From: an uncultured Thermococci archaeon
GTDB taxonomy: Archaea; Methanobacteriota_B; Thermococci; Thermococcales; Thermococcaceae
Reading direction: 5' to 3'
Length of the DNA stretch: 28,242 bases
NCBI GenBank assembly: GCA_964487115.1
Contig: CAZAPD010000084.1
Coordinates: forward strand, 1-28,242
Under the pieces are notes generated by a model. The model was not told the origin of the DNA. It saw only the letters and a program-made list of their open reading frames with translations, and searched no databases. Shown piece by piece: positions 16,080 through 26,119 of this stretch. Position 1 is the stretch's first letter; every line of letters begins with the position of its first letter. The position numbers and the translations under genes are program-made.

Positions 16080-17534
16080 ATGATTTCCGAAAAAGAGACT
16101 GATGTTCTGATAGTTGGAGCAGGTCCAGCAGGTTTATTCGCCGCTTATGAGCTTGCCGAAAAAAGCAATTTCAGGATTCTGGTTGTTGATGAAGGGGGGG
16201 ATATAGAGCAGCGCGTTTGTCCGATGTACGAGCTTGGCTACTGTGTTGCCTGTAAACCGTGCCACATCATGAGTGGTATCGGTGGGGCGGGAGGCCTCAG
16301 CGATGGAACAATAAACCTCCGTCCGGACATAGGTGGCAATTTAGCAGATTTAACTCACGATGAGAACTATTCTTGGCAGCTCGTCTGGGAGGTTGACCGG
16401 ATTTTTCTCAAACATGGTGCCCCGAAGAACCTTTTCAAAGGGAATCCCGAGCAGATAAGGGATTGGGAAAGAAAGGCAGCTCAGGCGGGAGTGAAATTTA
16501 TCCCCATAATTCAGAGACATATAGGCTCAGATCACACCCCTGAAGTTATAGGGAGCATAAAACAACATCTGGAAGGTAGAGGTGTTAAATTCCTCCTCTG
16601 GACAAAGGTTCTGGAATTCAGGCAGGGGGAGGCAGTGGTGAAGAGAGGAAAAGATGTTTTTACAGTCAAAGCAAAGTACATTATCGTTGCTCCGGGGAGA
16701 GGAGGAGCCGACTGGTTCCATGATGTAGCTCAAAAGATAGGATTAAAAGCCAGACACGGACCGATTGATGTAGGTGTAAGGGTTGAGGTGCCTGCAATAG
16801 TTATGGAGCCCATAACGAGCATAAATCACGACCCTAAGTTTCACATTTATACCGACACCTATGACGACTTTGTTAGGACATTTTGCACCAACCCGAACGG
16901 TTTTGTTGTTGAGGAGCGCTATGACGGTTATGTTGGAGTTAATGGCCACTCTATGAGGGACAGAAAGAGCAACAATACAAACTTCGCATTTTTAAGCAGA
17001 ATAGAGTTAACAGAGCCTGTTGAGGATACAACAGCTTATGGAAAGAGCATAGCACAGCTCTCAACGACAATAGGTGGAGGAAAACCTCTTCTTCAGAGGC
17101 TCGGAGACCTTAGAAGAGGAAGGAGGAGCACGTGGACAAGGATAAGGAGGAGCGACGTAGAGCCAACGCTGAAACACGTCACCCCCGGGGATATAGCAAT
17201 GGCTCTTCCCCACAGAATCGTCACAAACATCATGGAAGGTCTTGAGAAGCTCGACCGGGTGATTCCCGGAGTTGCAAGCGATCATACTCTACTCTATGCT
17301 CCGGAGATAAAATACTATGCCATGCGTGCGGAGGTGGATGAGAACCTTGAAACGAATATAGAGGGCATCTTCGCCGCTGGAGATGGTGCAGGCCTTTCGA
17401 GAGACATAGTAAATGCTGCAGCAACGGGAATTTTAGCAGCAAGAGGAATACTCAAGAAGGAAGGTCTCTTCACGGAGAAGGAATTCAGGAAACCGGGAAA
17501 CTGGAGGCATGTTATAGAATCCATGGAAGAGTAA
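16080..17534 (+). CDS. NAD(P)/FAD-dependent oxidoreductase (COG2509-like) with N-terminal Cys cluster
   Basis: IVGAGPAG Rossmann motif; CPxxxxxxCxxCxPC; GGAGGLSDG; RTFCTNPNGFV; AAGDGAGLSR. Confidence 0.88.
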   Translation: MISEKETDVLIVGAGPAGLFAAYELAEKSNFRILVVDEGGDIEQRVCPMYELGYCVACKPCHIMSGIGGAGGLSDGTINLRPDIGGNLADLTHDENYSWQLVWEVDRIFLKHGAPKNLFKGNPEQIRDWERKAAQAGVKFIPIIQRHIGSDHTPEVIGSIKQHLEGRGVKFLLWTKVLEFRQGEAVVKRGKDVFTVKAKYIIVAPGRGGADWFHDVAQKIGLKARHGPIDVGVRVEVPAIVMEPITSINHDPKFHIYTDTYDDFVRTFCTNPNGFVVEERYDGYVGVNGHSMRDRKSNNTNFAFLSRIELTEPVEDTTAYGKSIAQLSTTIGGGKPLLQRLGDLRRGRRSTWTRIRRSDVEPTLKHVTPGDIAMALPHRIVTNIMEGLEKLDRVIPGVASDHTLLYAPEIKYYAMRAEVDENLETNIEGIFAAGDGAGLSRDIVNAAATGILAARGILKKEGLFTEKEFRKPGNWRHVIESMEE

Positions 17535-17550: not shown

Positions 17551-18363
17551 TTAAATTACTTTCTCGGGATTTTCTATATAGTATTTTATCCTCCCCAAGA
17601 ATCTTGCGGCTGGTGCTCCATCTATCGCCCTATGATCAAAACTCAAGGACAACATCATCATGTGAGCAGATTCAATTTTTCTGTTCCTTACAAGTGGTTT
17701 TTCAATTATCCTATTGAGGCCAAGAATTGCAACCTGAGGCGGGTTTATTATCGGAGTAAATGAATCAACACCAAACATGCCCAAATTCGTTACAGTAAAA
17801 GTTCCACCAATAAAATCCTTCTCTTTTAGGAGACCCTTTCTTGTCCTCTCAACAATATCCAGATACTCATCAAGGAGCTCTTCAATGCTTTTCTCATCAA
17901 CCTTTCGGATCACTGGAGTTATTAAGCCTAAAGGACTATCAACAGCTACGTTAATATTAATGTCTTCATAAACTGTTATTTTGTCACCCTCTATTGTTGC
18001 ATTAACATCAATGAAATCCCTAATAGCTTTAGCTATGCATTTTAACATAAGTACTGTGTAAGAAGGCTTCTTCCCAAGCTTCTTACTGAGTTCTTTTCTA
18101 ACATCAATAAGCTCATCAACTTCCACTTCCATGTTGAGAGTTACATGAACAGCCTTGCGATAGCTCCCTGAGAGCCTATCCGCAATTACTTTCCTGATTC
18201 CTATTAACTTACTTTCCCGCAAAATCTTTGGATAGAAATGCTCCCTTATGTATCTCTCAAGATCCTCAATAGTGACTTCTCCATCTGGTCCAGAACCTTG
18301 AATTTTCGATAGATCTATATCATACTGCTCAGCAATCATTTCGATCTCTTCGTTATGAACCAT
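17551..18363 (-). CDS. 2-oxoacid/acetoin dehydrogenase E2 acyltransferase lacking a lipoyl domain
   Basis: Subunit-binding-domain-like IDLSKIQGSGPDGEVTIEDL; GGTFTVTNLG, FTPIINPPQVAILG, catalytic SFDHRAIDGA. It has its own GGTGA RBS and no N-terminal lipoyl domain. Confidence 0.92.
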   Translation of the reverse strand: MVHNEEIEMIAEQYDIDLSKIQGSGPDGEVTIEDLERYIREHFYPKILRESKLIGIRKVIADRLSGSYRKAVHVTLNMEVEVDELIDVRKELSKKLGKKPSYTVLMLKCIAKAIRDFIDVNATIEGDKITVYEDININVAVDSPLGLITPVIRKVDEKSIEELLDEYLDIVERTRKGLLKEKDFIGGTFTVTNLGMFGVDSFTPIINPPQVAILGLNRIIEKPLVRNRKIESAHMMMLSLSFDHRAIDGAPAARFLGRIKYYIENPEKVI

Positions 18364-18490
18364 ACTATCACCATTTTTTAGTAACCTATTTGAGATATAA
18401 CTCTTCCCTTTACCATGTTAAATTACGGGAATTCAATATAGACACCTAAAAAATTTAAAATGGGCAAAAAAACAGTTAATGGTGAGGCAA

Positions 18491-18931
18491 ATGAAGGATC
18501 TAAGCTTTGTAGTGATCGGAAAGTCATTCTCCGATACCAAACTGCTTGCAAAAGTTAGAGGTTTTACCGTGATTGTTGATGAACCTTCTGAAATTGGAGG
18601 AAGCGATAAAGGTCCTACTCCCCTGGAGTATCTTCTCATAGCACTTGCTGGATGCCTAAATATAACCTTTCGAAAAATAGCAGCCGAACGAGGCGTAAAT
18701 ATAAGCTCATTAGAATTTGTCATGAAGGGTACCCTTAATCCCAGTAAGTTTCAGGGTATCCCCACAAAAGAAAGAGCAGGTTATAAAGAGATAACAGTCC
18801 TTGTTAAACTTAACTCAGACGCTCCAAAAGAGACACTCATGGAAATCCTCAAAGAAGCTGAAAAAAGATGTCCAGTCAGTGATAATCTAATAATGCCAAC
18901 GCCATTAAAAATTGAAGTTAAGAAACTATAA
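18491..18931 (+). CDS. OsmC/Ohr family protein
   Basis: DEPSEIGGSDKGPTPLEYLLIALAGC and AEKRCPVSDNL, with both conserved Cys. Probable start MKDL at 18491 after GGTGAGG. Confidence 0.92.
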   Translation: MKDLSFVVIGKSFSDTKLLAKVRGFTVIVDEPSEIGGSDKGPTPLEYLLIALAGCLNITFRKIAAERGVNISSLEFVMKGTLNPSKFQGIPTKERAGYKEITVLVKLNSDAPKETLMEILKEAEKRCPVSDNLIMPTPLKIEVKKL

Positions 18932-20772: not shown

Positions 20773-21768
20773 TCAGTAGTCGTAGCCAGAATCATCAACA
20801 AAAAGATCTTTTAGAGCATCTTCCGGTTTAGGGAACTTGCTTTTCCTTGCAAACTCCACGGCTTCTGCAATCATCTGTTCTACTTTCATGTCTATTTCTT
20901 CAATCTCCCTTTCAGTTAAGATGTTATTTTCAAGCAAAAATTTTCTATATCTCCCCAAAGGCTCTCTTTCCCAGAATTTCTTAACCTCTTCTTTTGATCT
21001 GTAAAGCTCTGGGTCTCCAACAAAATGTCCTTTCAGTCTATAGGTCTTTGCCTCTAATAAAAACGGGCCACTTCCACATCTTGCTCTCTCTATTGCCATT
21101 TTCGCCGCTTTATAGACCTCAAGAACATTGTTTCCATCAATTGTCATTCCGGGTATTCCATATGATGCTGACCTAATAGCAACATTCTTAACTGGTATCA
21201 TTTCTTTTGCTGGGGCTGTTGATGCATATTCATTGAATTCTACCACAAATACCACTGGAAGGTTATAAACAGCGGCGAAGTTTAATCCTTCATGAAATGC
21301 TCCTCTGTTTGTTGCTCCATCCCCAAAAAATGAAACAACAACTTGATCTGTCCCTTTGAATTTAATTGCTAATCCTGCTCCAACTGCTATGGGAATTCCC
21401 CCAGCAACTTCCCCATTGGCTCCAAGTACTCCCTTTGAGACATCAGCTATGTGCATTGAACCTCCTTTTCCCTTGCAGTATCCACTCTCCTTTCCATAAA
21501 GTTCTGCCATCATTCGCTTCAAATCTGCGCCCTTTGCTATCATGTGTCCATGTCCTCTATGAGTGCTCGTTATATAATCGTCCTCTCTAAGATTTGCCAT
21601 GACTCCTGTTGCAATGGCCTCTTCTCCCACATACGAATGAATAAATCCGGGTATCTCACCTCTAAGAAAATTCTGTTCTGCGGTTATATCAAACTTCCTT
21701 ATCTTCACCATTGTTTCATACATCCAAATCAGTTTCTCTTTTGGTATATCCTCCCATCTAACCCTCAT
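20773..21768 (-). CDS. 2-oxoacid/acetoin dehydrogenase E1 alpha subunit (TPP-dependent, AcoA-like)
   Basis: PGFIHSYVGEEA, STHRGHGH, GKGGSMH, GDGATNRGAFHE TPP motif, YRLKGHFVGDP. Confidence 0.93.
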   Translation of the reverse strand: MRVRWEDIPKEKLIWMYETMVKIRKFDITAEQNFLRGEIPGFIHSYVGEEAIATGVMANLREDDYITSTHRGHGHMIAKGADLKRMMAELYGKESGYCKGKGGSMHIADVSKGVLGANGEVAGGIPIAVGAGLAIKFKGTDQVVVSFFGDGATNRGAFHEGLNFAAVYNLPVVFVVEFNEYASTAPAKEMIPVKNVAIRSASYGIPGMTIDGNNVLEVYKAAKMAIERARCGSGPFLLEAKTYRLKGHFVGDPELYRSKEEVKKFWEREPLGRYRKFLLENNILTEREIEEIDMKVEQMIAEAVEFARKSKFPKPEDALKDLFVDDSGYDY

Positions 21769-21780
21769 CCAAACACCTCC

Positions 21781-23070
21781 CTAATATAAATTGGCATGTT
21801 TAGGCAGCCAGAGAGAAAGCTGTGGGAACAACATCGCGATTATTAATGCTAATATGGCGGCAAGTATCAATGGAAAGGCTTCTCTGGCTATATCTTCTAA
21901 GCGCACTTTGGCTATATTTGCCGCAACGTATGCATTTACAGCAACGGGAGGAGTTACTTGGCCTATTGCAAGGTTTATTGTTATGACAACTCCAAACCAT
22001 AAAGGATCCCACTTAAAATGCTGCATTATTGGCATGAAGATTGGAAGAAAAACATAGTATATTGAGATTGCATCTAAAAACATTCCTGCAATAAGTAACA
22101 TTATGTTAATCAGGAACAGTATTACTATTGGATTACTTGAGAAACCAGTTATTGCAGCTACCGCATGGTTTATCAGACCTGCAGTTTCCTCAACCCATGA
22201 AAATAAAGTTGCAAAGGTAACAACAAACATAACTACAGCTGAAGTCTCTGCCGAATCTCTTAAAATTTTAATAAACTTCTTGAAGGTTATGGTCCTGTAG
22301 ATGACGGCTCCTATGAACCAGGAATAAACAACCGCAACAACTGCAGCCTCTGTTGGAGTAAATACTCCTCCATAAATACCTCCCAGTATTATCAATGGAG
22401 CCAAAAGACCAAGGAAGGAGTCTTTAAATGCCTCAATAATTTCTCCCATACTCCTTTTTTCAACACCTCCTCTCCAATTTCTTTTTCTCGATACTAAGTA
22501 GGTTGTTATTATCAAGAGGGAACTTGTGATCAATCCCGGGATTATACCCGCAATAAAGAGGGCTCCGATAGAAACGCTTGTTATTACGCCATAAATGATA
22601 AAAGCTATACTGGGAGGTATTATTATCGCCAAGCCAGATGCCGTTGATATAACACCTGCCGAAAACCCCTTAGAATAGCCACTTGCTATCAATGCTGGAA
22701 TCAGGATAACTCCCAATGCCGCTGTAGTCGCTGGCCCCGAACCAGAAACTGCTCCCCAAAATGTCGCTACTATTACTCCAACTATCGCAAGGCCTCCGTA
22801 AATGTTTCCTATTAGAAGTTTTGCCAATTTTATTATCCTCTCTGCTATGCCAGATTCCTGCATAGTTATACCGGCAGTTACAAAGAAGGGAATTGCGAGT
22901 AGAGGAAACTTTGCTATGGCTGAGTATATGTTTGGTCCGACAACTTCAATTCCATAGGCATAGTGCCAGATCGCAAATATCGAGACTATACCAAGGGATG
23001 TTCCTATCGGAACACCCACCAAAAGAAGAACTCCAAAGAGGAGGAGTATAAGGATTGATGGGTCAAGCAT
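21781..23070 (-). CDS. TRAP transporter large permease (DctM)
   Basis: LLAIPFF, GAVSGSGPA, IIPPSI, GVFTPTEAA, IGQVTPPV. Confidence 0.93.
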   Translation of the reverse strand: MLDPSILILLLFGVLLLVGVPIGTSLGIVSIFAIWHYAYGIEVVGPNIYSAIAKFPLLAIPFFVTAGITMQESGIAERIIKLAKLLIGNIYGGLAIVGVIVATFWGAVSGSGPATTAALGVILIPALIASGYSKGFSAGVISTASGLAIIIPPSIAFIIYGVITSVSIGALFIAGIIPGLITSSLLIITTYLVSRKRNWRGGVEKRSMGEIIEAFKDSFLGLLAPLIILGGIYGGVFTPTEAAVVAVVYSWFIGAVIYRTITFKKFIKILRDSAETSAVVMFVVTFATLFSWVEETAGLINHAVAAITGFSSNPIVILFLINIMLLIAGMFLDAISIYYVFLPIFMPIMQHFKWDPLWFGVVITINLAIGQVTPPVAVNAYVAANIAKVRLEDIAREAFPLILAAILALIIAMLFPQLSLWLPKHANLY

Positions 23071-23518
23071 TTTTCATAACCTCCCTCATGCTCTGTATTA
23101 TCCTAAAAACTACCAGAACAGATATTATCGGCATTCCAATTGTATATATCCACATTGGAATTCCTAATGCCATTGTCGTCGAATGATAAACTGTCATGTC
23201 AAGGTAGACATATTGAGCCGTGAGATAGAGAACCACAATAAAAAGGATTAAGCTAAGTATCTGTCCAAATATTATGAGATGCTTTCTTACAGGTAACCTA
23301 TCCCTTACAAAGACCATCGCTAAATGAGAGCCTTTTTTAAATGCCATAGCTATCCCCAGAAACGTTACCCACACAAAAAATGCTACTTCAATTTCTTCTG
23401 TAAACGCTATAGAAGCCCGAAAAAGATATCTTGTAACAACATTTATAAACGCCACAAGAATCATGATCAGAAGAAGGACAGCTGCAACATATCCCTCTGG
23501 TTCAATTTTCTCTTCCAA
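23063..23518 (-). CDS. TRAP transporter small permease (DctQ)
   Basis: NVVTRY, FTEEI, WVTFLG, GSHLAM; four hydrophobic helices. Probable TTG start at 23518 after GGAGGTG (the ORF track uses 23527). Confidence 0.9.
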   Translation of the reverse strand: MEEKIEPEGYVAAVLLLIMILVAFINVVTRYLFRASIAFTEEIEVAFFVWVTFLGIAMAFKKGSHLAMVFVRDRLPVRKHLIIFGQILSLILFIVVLYLTAQYVYLDMTVYHSTTMALGIPMWIYTIGMPIISVLVVFRIIQSMREVMKNA

Positions 23519-23546
23519 ATTAGGCACCTCCTTCAGATTTGGATTT

Positions 23547-24759: not shown

Positions 24760-25002
24760 TCAGACCTCCGTTTCTATCAACGCTATCGGTTCCCCAATAG
24801 GAACCTCATCCCCCTCCTCATGTATTATCTTAACAAGAATACCATCGGCCGGAGATTCAACCTCCCCAGTAAGTTTTTCACTTTCTATCTCTGCGATTGT
24901 TTCACCTTTTTTGACAAGGTCCCCTTCTTTCTTTATCCACTTGATTATAGTGCCACTTTCCATAGTTAGTCCCAATTTCGGCATTACGATTTCTACTTTC
25001 AC
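24760..25002 (-). CDS. Stand-alone lipoyl-domain protein (AcoC-like lipoyl domain)
   Basis: VMPKLGLTMESGTIIKW.KKEGD.V..GE.IAEIESEKLT.EVESPADG has the lipoyl-Lys in ESEK. Probable GTG start at 25002; the stop lies 2 bp before the dctP ATG. Confidence 0.9.
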   Translation of the reverse strand: MKVEIVMPKLGLTMESGTIIKWIKKEGDLVKKGETIAEIESEKLTGEVESPADGILVKIIHEEGDEVPIGEPIALIETEV

Positions 25003-25180
25003 GGATATCCCCAATATCTTATAAAACTTGCAAAATCTAAAAGTTTTGAGTGAACATATTAAACACCTGATTTATCTAAAGTAGGTGTATGCATAGAATA
25101 CATCCCACTGGGACTAATGAACAACTTTTAAAGCTGAGTAATTGTACTAATGCTCAAAAATCAACAGAGGGGAGAATACT

Positions 25181-26119
25181 ATGAGATGCAAATTCTGTAG
25201 GAGAAAAGCCTTCATCAAGATCCACTATCCAAAAATGTATCTCTGCGAGGAACACTTTAAGGAGTATTTTGAGAGAAAGGTTAAGCGCACGATTGAGAGA
25301 TATAAACTTCTCAATTTTAATGAGAAGATCCTCGTTGTAGTCAGCGGCGGCAAGGATTCGGCAGTTACCGTTTACGTTCTCAAAAAACTCGGCTATAACA
25401 TAGAATGCCTCCACATAAACCTTGGAATAGGTGAGTACTCAGAGAAGAGCGAGGAGTATGCGAGAAAGCAGTGTAAGAAGCTCGGAGTTCCACTTCATAT
25501 CGTCCGCATCAGGGAGCTCTTAGGAAAAGGAATCGGCGAGGTCAGAACAAGAAGACCAATTTGTTCTTACTGCGGTTTAACCAAACGCTACATCTTCAAC
25601 AAGTTCGCCTATGATAACGGCTTTGATGCAGTAGCTACCGGTCACAATCTCGACGACGAAGCGAGCTTCATCTTCGCCAATCTGATGAACTGGAACACAC
25701 AATATCTGGCCAAACAGGGCCCTCTCCTGCCAAGAGATGGGAAATTCGTTAAGAAGGTGAAACCTCTTTATGAGCTCACCGAGAGGGAAGTCACTGCATA
25801 TGCTCTGGTCACCGGGATAGATTACATGCTGGATGAATGCCCCCATGCAGAAGGTGCGACAACAATTGAATACAAAGAAATCCTCAACAGAATGGAGGAG
25901 AAACGACCCGGAACAAAAATCAACTTCATAAAGGGCTATCTGAGAAAGAAAAAGCTCTTTGAGATTGAACTTGGAGAGCATGAGCTCAGGGAATGCAGAG
26001 TCTGTGGTATGCCCTCCCAGGGAGAGAAGTGTTCCTTCTGCAATTTCTGGGGTCTGGAAAAACCTCTAAAATTTAAAATAACCAGCGACAGGATAAAGGA
26101 AAGCTTTAAGTCTCTTTAA
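25181..26119 (+). CDS. ttuA: tRNA 2-thiolation enzyme TtuA (TtcA/TtuA family, TIGR00269-like)
   Basis: N-terminal CxxC...CxxH zinc finger, SGGKDS PP-loop, CSYC, GHNLDD, ECPH, C-terminal CxxC...CxxC. The N-terminus resembles Pyrococcus TtuA as I recall it. Confidence 0.85.
   Translation: MRCKFCRRKAFIKIHYPKMYLCEEHFKEYFERKVKRTIERYKLLNFNEKILVVVSGGKDSAVTVYVLKKLGYNIECLHINLGIGEYSEKSEEYARKQCKKLGVPLHIVRIRELLGKGIGEVRTRRPICSYCGLTKRYIFNKFAYDNGFDAVATGHNLDDEASFIFANLMNWNTQYLAKQGPLLPRDGKFVKKVKPLYELTEREVTAYALVTGIDYMLDECPHAEGATTIEYKEILNRMEEKRPGTKINFIKGYLRKKKLFEIELGEHELRECRVCGMPSQGEKCSFCNFWGLEKPLKFKITSDRIKESFKSL

Follow-up and report, generated by a model that had tools for sequence, protein, structure and literature searches.

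The flavoprotein E3 is commonly regarded as a fixed component of lipoyl dehydrogenase complexes. Acetoin dehydrogenases of the acoXABCL type and bacterial modules of the arrangement E1-E1-TRAP-E2(-E3) share E1 alpha and beta, an E2 with the motif DHRxxDG and a lipoyl carrier with the locus described here. Another related group is formed by the Ohr and OsmC peroxidases, which, as described in PMC5384416, are reduced by lipoylated proteins and are defined by an added arginine and glutamate, a separate 'Ohr-like' group lacking both. The electrons of Ohr and OsmC come from E3. The same paper deals with the L-H-OsmC system of Trichomonas hydrogenosomes, in which an Ohr-like protein draws on a stand-alone lipoyl carrier; peroxidase activity of an Ohr-like Trichomonas protein was not detected by one laboratory, and the electron source is NADH via the L protein, unlike in the proposal made below (PMC5384416). 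A GcvH-like/OsmC pair of Hyphomicrobium likewise combines an Ohr-like protein with a stand-alone lipoyl carrier, its role being only proposed (bioRxiv 10.64898/2026.10.01.755906). A precedent for the bypass of E3 comes from mycobacteria, where, according to PMC12995895, carbon-derived electrons leave the lipoyl-E2 via a small thiol protein (E1 to DlaT to AhpD/AhpC). For Archaea it has been suggested that E2 together with lipoylation marks an aerobic way of life, E2 having been noted in three Thermococcus species as well (PMC3904984), and the OsmC TK0189 of T. kodakarensis was studied earlier (PMC4473059). No paper combining OsmC, lipoyl and acetoin dehydrogenase, or giving the arrangement reported here, was found in the literature searched, subscription journals lying mostly outside of it.

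The window, i.e. the whole stretch of 28,242 nucleotides that was analysed, is contig C84 of the genome of a hydrothermal-vent archaeon (G000; completeness 96.5%) whose named relatives are Thermococcus and Palaeococcus. It contains an island of 7.5 kb located between a FAD oxidoreductase (16080-17534) and the tRNA thiolase TtuA (25181-26119), with a GC content of 0.396 vs 0.432 for the genome. The island is composed of the following features:

17551..18363, minus strand: E2 acyltransferase with subunit-binding and catalytic domain (DHRxxDG); PF02817 31.8 bits, PF00198 264 bits
18364..18490, no strand: divergent intergenic region of 127 bp, common to E2 and the OsmC-like gene
18491..18931, plus strand: OsmC-like two-cysteine protein of 146 aa, candidate dihydrolipoyl oxidiser; PF02566 78.8 bits
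19059..19790, plus strand: transcription regulator of the HTH_10/BAT type; PF04967 49 bits, weak PF15915
19787..20761, minus strand: E1 beta; PF02779, PF02780; NF006667 354 vs cut-off 321
20773..21768, minus strand: E1 alpha, thiamine-diphosphate dependent; PF00676 289.5 bits; TIGR03182 362.6, below cut-off 393.85
21781..23070, minus strand: TRAP large permease DctM; TIGR00786 393.7 vs cut-off 268.45
23063..23527, minus strand: TRAP small permease DctQ; PF04290 92.7 bits
23570..24757, minus strand: TRAP solute-binding protein DctP; nearest solved relative 4P8B (H16_A1328)
24760..25014, minus strand: stand-alone lipoyl domain (Lys47 within ESEK) at the head of the TRAP-E1 operon; PF00364 71.3 bits

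The E2 and OsmC-like genes stand head to head with 127 bp between their starts, which agrees with the common divergent region of about 130 bp reported in an earlier note on this DNA, and a contig of run X2, which belongs to an independent study, covers 17768-18912 and thereby spans the junction. With a GC3 of 0.30 the OsmC-like gene resembles the other island genes (0.33-0.41) and not the flanks (0.47-0.53). Between 18364 and 18490 an AT-rich, TATA-like word is present on the plus strand only, and the SurR-type word GTTn3AAC is absent; a sigma-70 promoter scan is unsuited to archaeal DNA. A search of metagenome loci yielded no second example of the island arrangement.

The start of the OsmC-like gene at 18491 is favoured over an in-frame ATG upstream at 18479 because of a word resembling a ribosome-binding site (GGTGA, 18481-18485) and the length of the homologues. 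As the earlier note had stated, the product possesses both cysteines, namely Cys55 in LAGC (codon 18653-18655) and Cys127 in RCPV (18869-18871), and it belongs to the Ohr/OsmC superfamily (PF02566 cut-off 27.5 bits). Both residues are invariant across 63 homologues and align with the two catalytic cysteines of Ohr and OsmC; the spacing of 72 residues, compared with about 60 in the superfamily, is attributable to a loop insertion. This extra loop carries an invariant ERAG-type arginine in the homologues. The structure predicted with AF2 (pLDDT 96.6) retrieved only OsmC folds as top Foldseek matches, the best one being the uncharacterised GSU2788 (2OPL; TM 0.90), whereas structures of Ohr and OsmC reached a TM of only about 0.6.

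The label 'OsmC' given earlier holds for the fold but not for the subfamily. The OsmC profile TIGR03562 scored 21.4 vs a cut-off of 85.8 bits, and no match to the Ohr profile TIGR03561 was listed. Judged against reference rows retrieved by family model (five Ohr, one OsmC), the loop-1 arginine of the five Ohr rows is not present, and relative to the single OsmC row the loop-3 arginine is replaced by Pro32 and the position of the glutamate after NP is taken by Leu45, a conserved Glu46 following one residue on. On the model NF041052 (OsmC-related (seleno)protein domain) the window protein scored 94.4 vs a cut-off of 95, and paralogues scored 91.6, 93.3 and 73.7. The profiles and residues place the window protein as OsmC-like, outside the OsmC and Ohr subfamilies. 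Since the defining arginine and glutamate are out of place and TIGR03562 is missed by so wide a margin, peroxidase activity is not transferable from Ohr/OsmC, and the peroxidase chemistry invoked in the earlier note finds no support in that form. Any likeness to E3 would be one of function only: the protein has 146 aa and an OsmC fold, while E3 is a FAD/NAD disulfide oxidoreductase of ~460 aa (TIGR01350). Complex prediction for the lipoyl domain and a dimer of the OsmC-like protein scored 0.00; the controls remained unfolded, and this result counts neither way.

E1 alpha and beta, the catalytic domain of E2 and the lipoyl lysine of a canonical 2-oxoacid or acetoin complex are all encoded; an E3 is not recognisable. 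The E2 of the window has no lipoyl domain. Its carrier is instead the separate domain encoded at 24760-25014; the lysine of this domain is invariant in 22 aligned rows, and among NCBIfam models it best matches the N-terminal part of NF011457 (acetoin dehydrogenase E2). Candidates for a lipoate ligase are present in the source genome. The nearest named non-archaeal relatives of E1 alpha occur in Synergistetes, Atribacteria, Caldiserica and Halanaerobiales (64-71%). DctP matches 4P8B with an E value of 1.1e-92 (next structure entry 1.8e-41), and the same entry ranks first by fold at 46% identity. The ligand of 4P8B is reportedly (S)-2-acetolactate. The substrate may accordingly be an acyloin such as 2-acetolactate instead of a decarboxylated keto acid; judging from this relative of DctP and the acetoin-type paralogous cluster described below, acyloin cleavage appears at least as likely as decarboxylation, which the earlier note had named as electron source and which finds no support here. 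In PMC5812351, 2-acetolactate is among the ligands listed for such binding proteins, the entry 4P8B not being given there.

Among 97 genomes of the Thermococcaceae none contained an E3 above the cut-off, compared with 11 of 14 controls (at most 14 candidates scored per genome). The best score in the source genome was 141 vs a cut-off of 408.8 bits, and no E3-type CxxxxC reading frame was found in it. The FAD oxidoreductase flanking the island (16080-17534) was rejected as E3, with 38 bits on the E3 model and a flank-like GC3. Also rejected were 11 matches in the family at 356-402 bits (7 viewed, none beside E1; one, when scanned, proved to be MerA with 583.8 vs a cut-off of 454.45) and 5 at 315-332 bits (3 loci viewed; the one scanned reached no family cut-off). 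All near misses viewed were MerA or glutathione-reductase-like and away from E1. With scores close to those required by the E3 model, these patchily distributed flavoproteins (L080-L085, L211-L215) might wrongly be annotated as E3.

The source genome contains a second E1/E2 cluster without E3 (L019; G000:C62:7304-15917), which is acetoin-dehydrogenase-like and also harbours an OsmC-like gene. It comprises two E1 alpha/beta pairs, two lipoyl domains, E2, the OsmC-like gene, DUF6506, Lin0512, a lipoate ligase and an AcoX-like kinase-fold gene; the last of these and Lin0512 are among the features in common with acetoin dehydrogenase. The GC content is 0.56 in the left and 0.42 in the right arm. 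Two of the three OsmC-family genes of the genome lie inside E1/E2 clusters, and they are 58% identical to each other. In the acetoin-type clusters E2 and the OsmC-like gene are ~3 kb apart in opposite arms, the latter directly after DUF6506. The E2 of the window nests among the acetoin-type cluster E2s of the same genus (quick tree, SH-aLRT 98). The island thus took its E2 from such a cluster and, of the other genes, kept the OsmC-like one only. DUF6506 (L019:10071-10373), with a conserved cysteine, occurs in 20 of the 97 genomes, all within the 24 that bear E1, and is not found in the window island; it may itself be a component of the complex. In several clusters it is preceded by a gene of the glyoxalase fold and by one for a membrane protein of 345 aa without Pfam match (L087:14175-15770).

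E1 alpha (matches >150 bits) is present in 24 of the 97 family genomes, and 20 of these could be scored, four being excluded for contig ends or incompleteness. An intact linked OsmC-like copy was found in 9 genomes (10 loci); the linked copy is broken in G085, and none is linked in 10, the absence in G084 resting on a genome-wide search. All 11 scorable genomes without an intact linked copy possess an unlinked one and none has E3. The cluster of G016, in which E1 alpha, DUF6506 and OsmC are all missing, carries no information on the link. None of five orthologous TRAP-E1 modules in relatives has OsmC or E2 beside the regulator, two of them ending at or near contig ends. A linked copy is present in 6/6 genomes without an unlinked copy vs 3/14 with one (p 0.002); this is a hint only, as kin are not independent, the split tracks genus lines and G003 is 78% complete. 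In the careful tree (52 rows chosen from 129; a quick tree of all 129 agrees) the 9 linked rows included share a single clade with 4 rows of unknown context (support 97/94); the Thermococcales group around it, to which the unlinked copies belong too, has a support of 94/95 and is not starred. Taken with the second cluster and the fusion described below, this speaks against a vertically inherited gene unlinked to E1/E2, one of the two outcomes which the earlier note had set as its refutation. Many unlinked copies adjoin an aldehyde:ferredoxin oxidoreductase (AOR); in L056, L061, L062, L064 and L225 the operon contains a 4Fe-4S protein, an AOR of 626 aa and, in many cases, a gene resembling ThiS/MoaD. 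Eight genomes of a single genus (L034, L041, L047, L049, L221-L224) have the unlinked copy head to head with the C-terminal subunit of a lipoate ligase (PF10437) in one inherited block.

The strongest single item of evidence is a protein of 468 aa (P0261) in which a lipoyl domain (5-75), an E2 catalytic domain (107-318) and an OsmC domain (360-465) of the same subtype as the window protein are joined by Pro-rich linkers and in which no match to an E3-binding domain was found. It is a single Logan record on one contig of 3.3 kb, detected among the best 150 of 6649 matches. Its OsmC part is 49% identical to the window protein, and its best six matches in 133 genomes are linked copies (52-56%), the E2 part being only 34-38% identical. 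P0261 groups with the linked clade at a support of 95 in the quick tree, and stands among the linked rows of the careful tree without starred support. No second fusion of this kind was found in 133 genomes of the phylum, no relatives in viral contigs, and no Atlas cluster combined E2 and OsmC. When long matches from the full HMMER search were scanned, 25 of 26 had OsmC domains only. A word-index search for longer fused forms was discarded: of 7994 candidates it gave one protein, with rhamnosidase-type domains, and it missed P0261.

Of 25 bacterial E1 loci none has OsmC within 6.5 kb and 8 have an E3-type gene. Eight of these loci are orthologues of the TRAP-E1 module (TRAP and E1 at 41-68% to those of the island) with a lipoyl-bearing E2 in the operon; OsmC is present in none, E3 follows directly after E2 in two, an E3-like gene lies in pieces nearby in one, and the other five hosts have E3 elsewhere in the genome. 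In a sister archaeal family all three operons read E1-E1-E2-E3-LplA, without OsmC. The island differs from the acetoin dehydrogenase and bacterial modules in that E2 is split from the lipoyl domain, E3 is missing from cluster and genome and an OsmC-like gene has been recruited. E1, a lipoyl domain or a ligase was found in 0/78 OsmC-like loci outside Thermococcales (flanks up to 8 kb), two of which have putative E2-like matches at only 22-23%. Downstream of one Halanaerobiales homologue, at a distance of 1.2 kb, lies a gene for a class-I disulfide oxidoreductase (L112:9674-11068).

The explanation that we prefer, with chances that seem evenly poised, is that the OsmC-like protein is a dedicated dihydrolipoyl oxidiser standing in for E3. 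The TRAP system would import a small carboxylate, which may be 2-acetolactate or some acyloin related to it; E1 would cleave the substrate and acylate the lipoyl domain, and E2 would transfer the acyl group to CoA. We infer that thiols are exchanged with the carrier: the Cys55-Cys127 disulfide would oxidise the dihydrolipoyl arm of the stand-alone domain, and the resulting dithiol would hand two electrons to a sulfur acceptor (polysulfide, persulfide or small disulfide) and not to NAD+. A sulfur compound is probably the acceptor, favoured over NAD+; it is favoured over peroxide by argument only, since an operon for catabolism that brings its own importer calls for a constant electron sink and the arginine and glutamate of the peroxidases are out of place. 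Energy would be gained from the acyl-CoA by substrate-level phosphorylation, which is established Thermococcales physiology. In contrast to the Ohr/OsmC peroxidases, which have E3 as electron source, this host lacks E3, and the arginine, the glutamate and the extra loop differ as well; the mycobacterial host retains E3 and uses AhpD/AhpC for defence, whereas here the thiol protein is of the OsmC fold and perhaps the sole outlet. As to the E3 replacement already proposed in the earlier note, the link to E1/E2 and the missing E3 stand, and an obligatory role does not, given that 11 of the 20 scorable genomes do without an intact linked copy. Several further observations argue against the dedicated oxidiser: more than half of the scorable E1 genomes manage without the gene in cis, DUF6506 tracks E1 clusters better (20/24), bacterial homologues lack the context, five TRAP-E1 modules are without OsmC, unlinked copies are tied to AOR, GcvH occurs without E3, and the fusion is a single record.

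Unlikely, though the most serious alternative, is an accessory antioxidant branch, in which a lipoyl-dependent peroxidase taps the dehydrogenase during exposure to oxygen and routine recycling follows a family-wide route shared with GcvH. That route might be a flavoprotein of the NOX/CoA-disulfide-reductase type, the near-universal YhfA-type OsmC, a protein disulfide oxidoreductase or direct polysulfide chemistry. GcvH occurs in 96 of the 97 genomes, none with E3, so that the L-protein of glycine cleavage is unaccounted for; some OsmC-family gene is present in 93/97 and the window subfamily in 50/97 (E at most 1e-20). If glycine cleavage runs, the near-universal GcvH and the much rarer window subfamily imply another route of lipoyl recycling, and a generic one may exist. 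The source genome has GcvP, GcvH and two NOX/CoADR-like flavoproteins. The branch would account for the scorable genomes that lack an intact linked copy, fits the precedents from mycobacteria, Trichomonas and Hyphomicrobium, and is compatible with P0261 too. It is opposed by the Ohr loop-1 and OsmC loop-3 arginines and the glutamate after NP, all out of place, and by the observation that OsmC and E3 never occur together in the clusters seen (OsmC in 0/25 bacterial loci and 0/3 sister-family operons), since a branch that serves defence alone could just as well lie next to E3. For T. onnurineus, Table 2 of PMC4463584 gives GcvH and the two P subunits as higher on sulfur; OsmC is unmentioned in the main texts of PMC6981617 and PMC4463584.

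A quite improbable reading ties the protein to the cluster in another role, either repair or maturation of the lipoyl arm (removal of persulfides or mixed disulfides, sulfur transfer) or partnership with DUF6506 or an AOR handling an aldehyde product. The unlinked copies opposite the lipoate ligase subunit (a single synteny block), those in operon with AOR, 4Fe-4S and ThiS/MoaD-like proteins and the position directly after DUF6506 in C62-type clusters are in line with it; the window island, however, retains the OsmC-like gene without DUF6506, ligase or AOR, and the fusion to an E2 core suggests use in every catalytic cycle. That the paralogue entered an ancestral cluster by chance and is now lost piecemeal is very improbable, for despite the patchy retention, the broken copy in G085 and bacterial homologues devoid of such context, the gene was retained through a rearrangement that placed it head to head with E2 in a different island, and in P0261 it is fused to a distant E2.

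Extending the dedicated-oxidiser reading, we tentatively suggest, as a whole with somewhat less than even confidence, that an OsmC-fold protein is the third component of Thermococcales lipoyl dehydrogenases without flavoprotein E3 and would couple the oxidation of acyloins or 2-oxoacids directly to the reduction of sulfur in the cytoplasm, with neither NAD nor ferredoxin in between. The fusion would then be the one-chain form, and the L-protein missing from glycine cleavage may likewise be an OsmC-fold paralogue. In this anaerobic family 24 of 97 genomes bear E1 clusters and none has E3. Naming the electron outlet would explain how these complexes, and perhaps GcvH, work in such hosts, and would for the first time assign a function to this uncharacterised subfamily of OsmC-like proteins.
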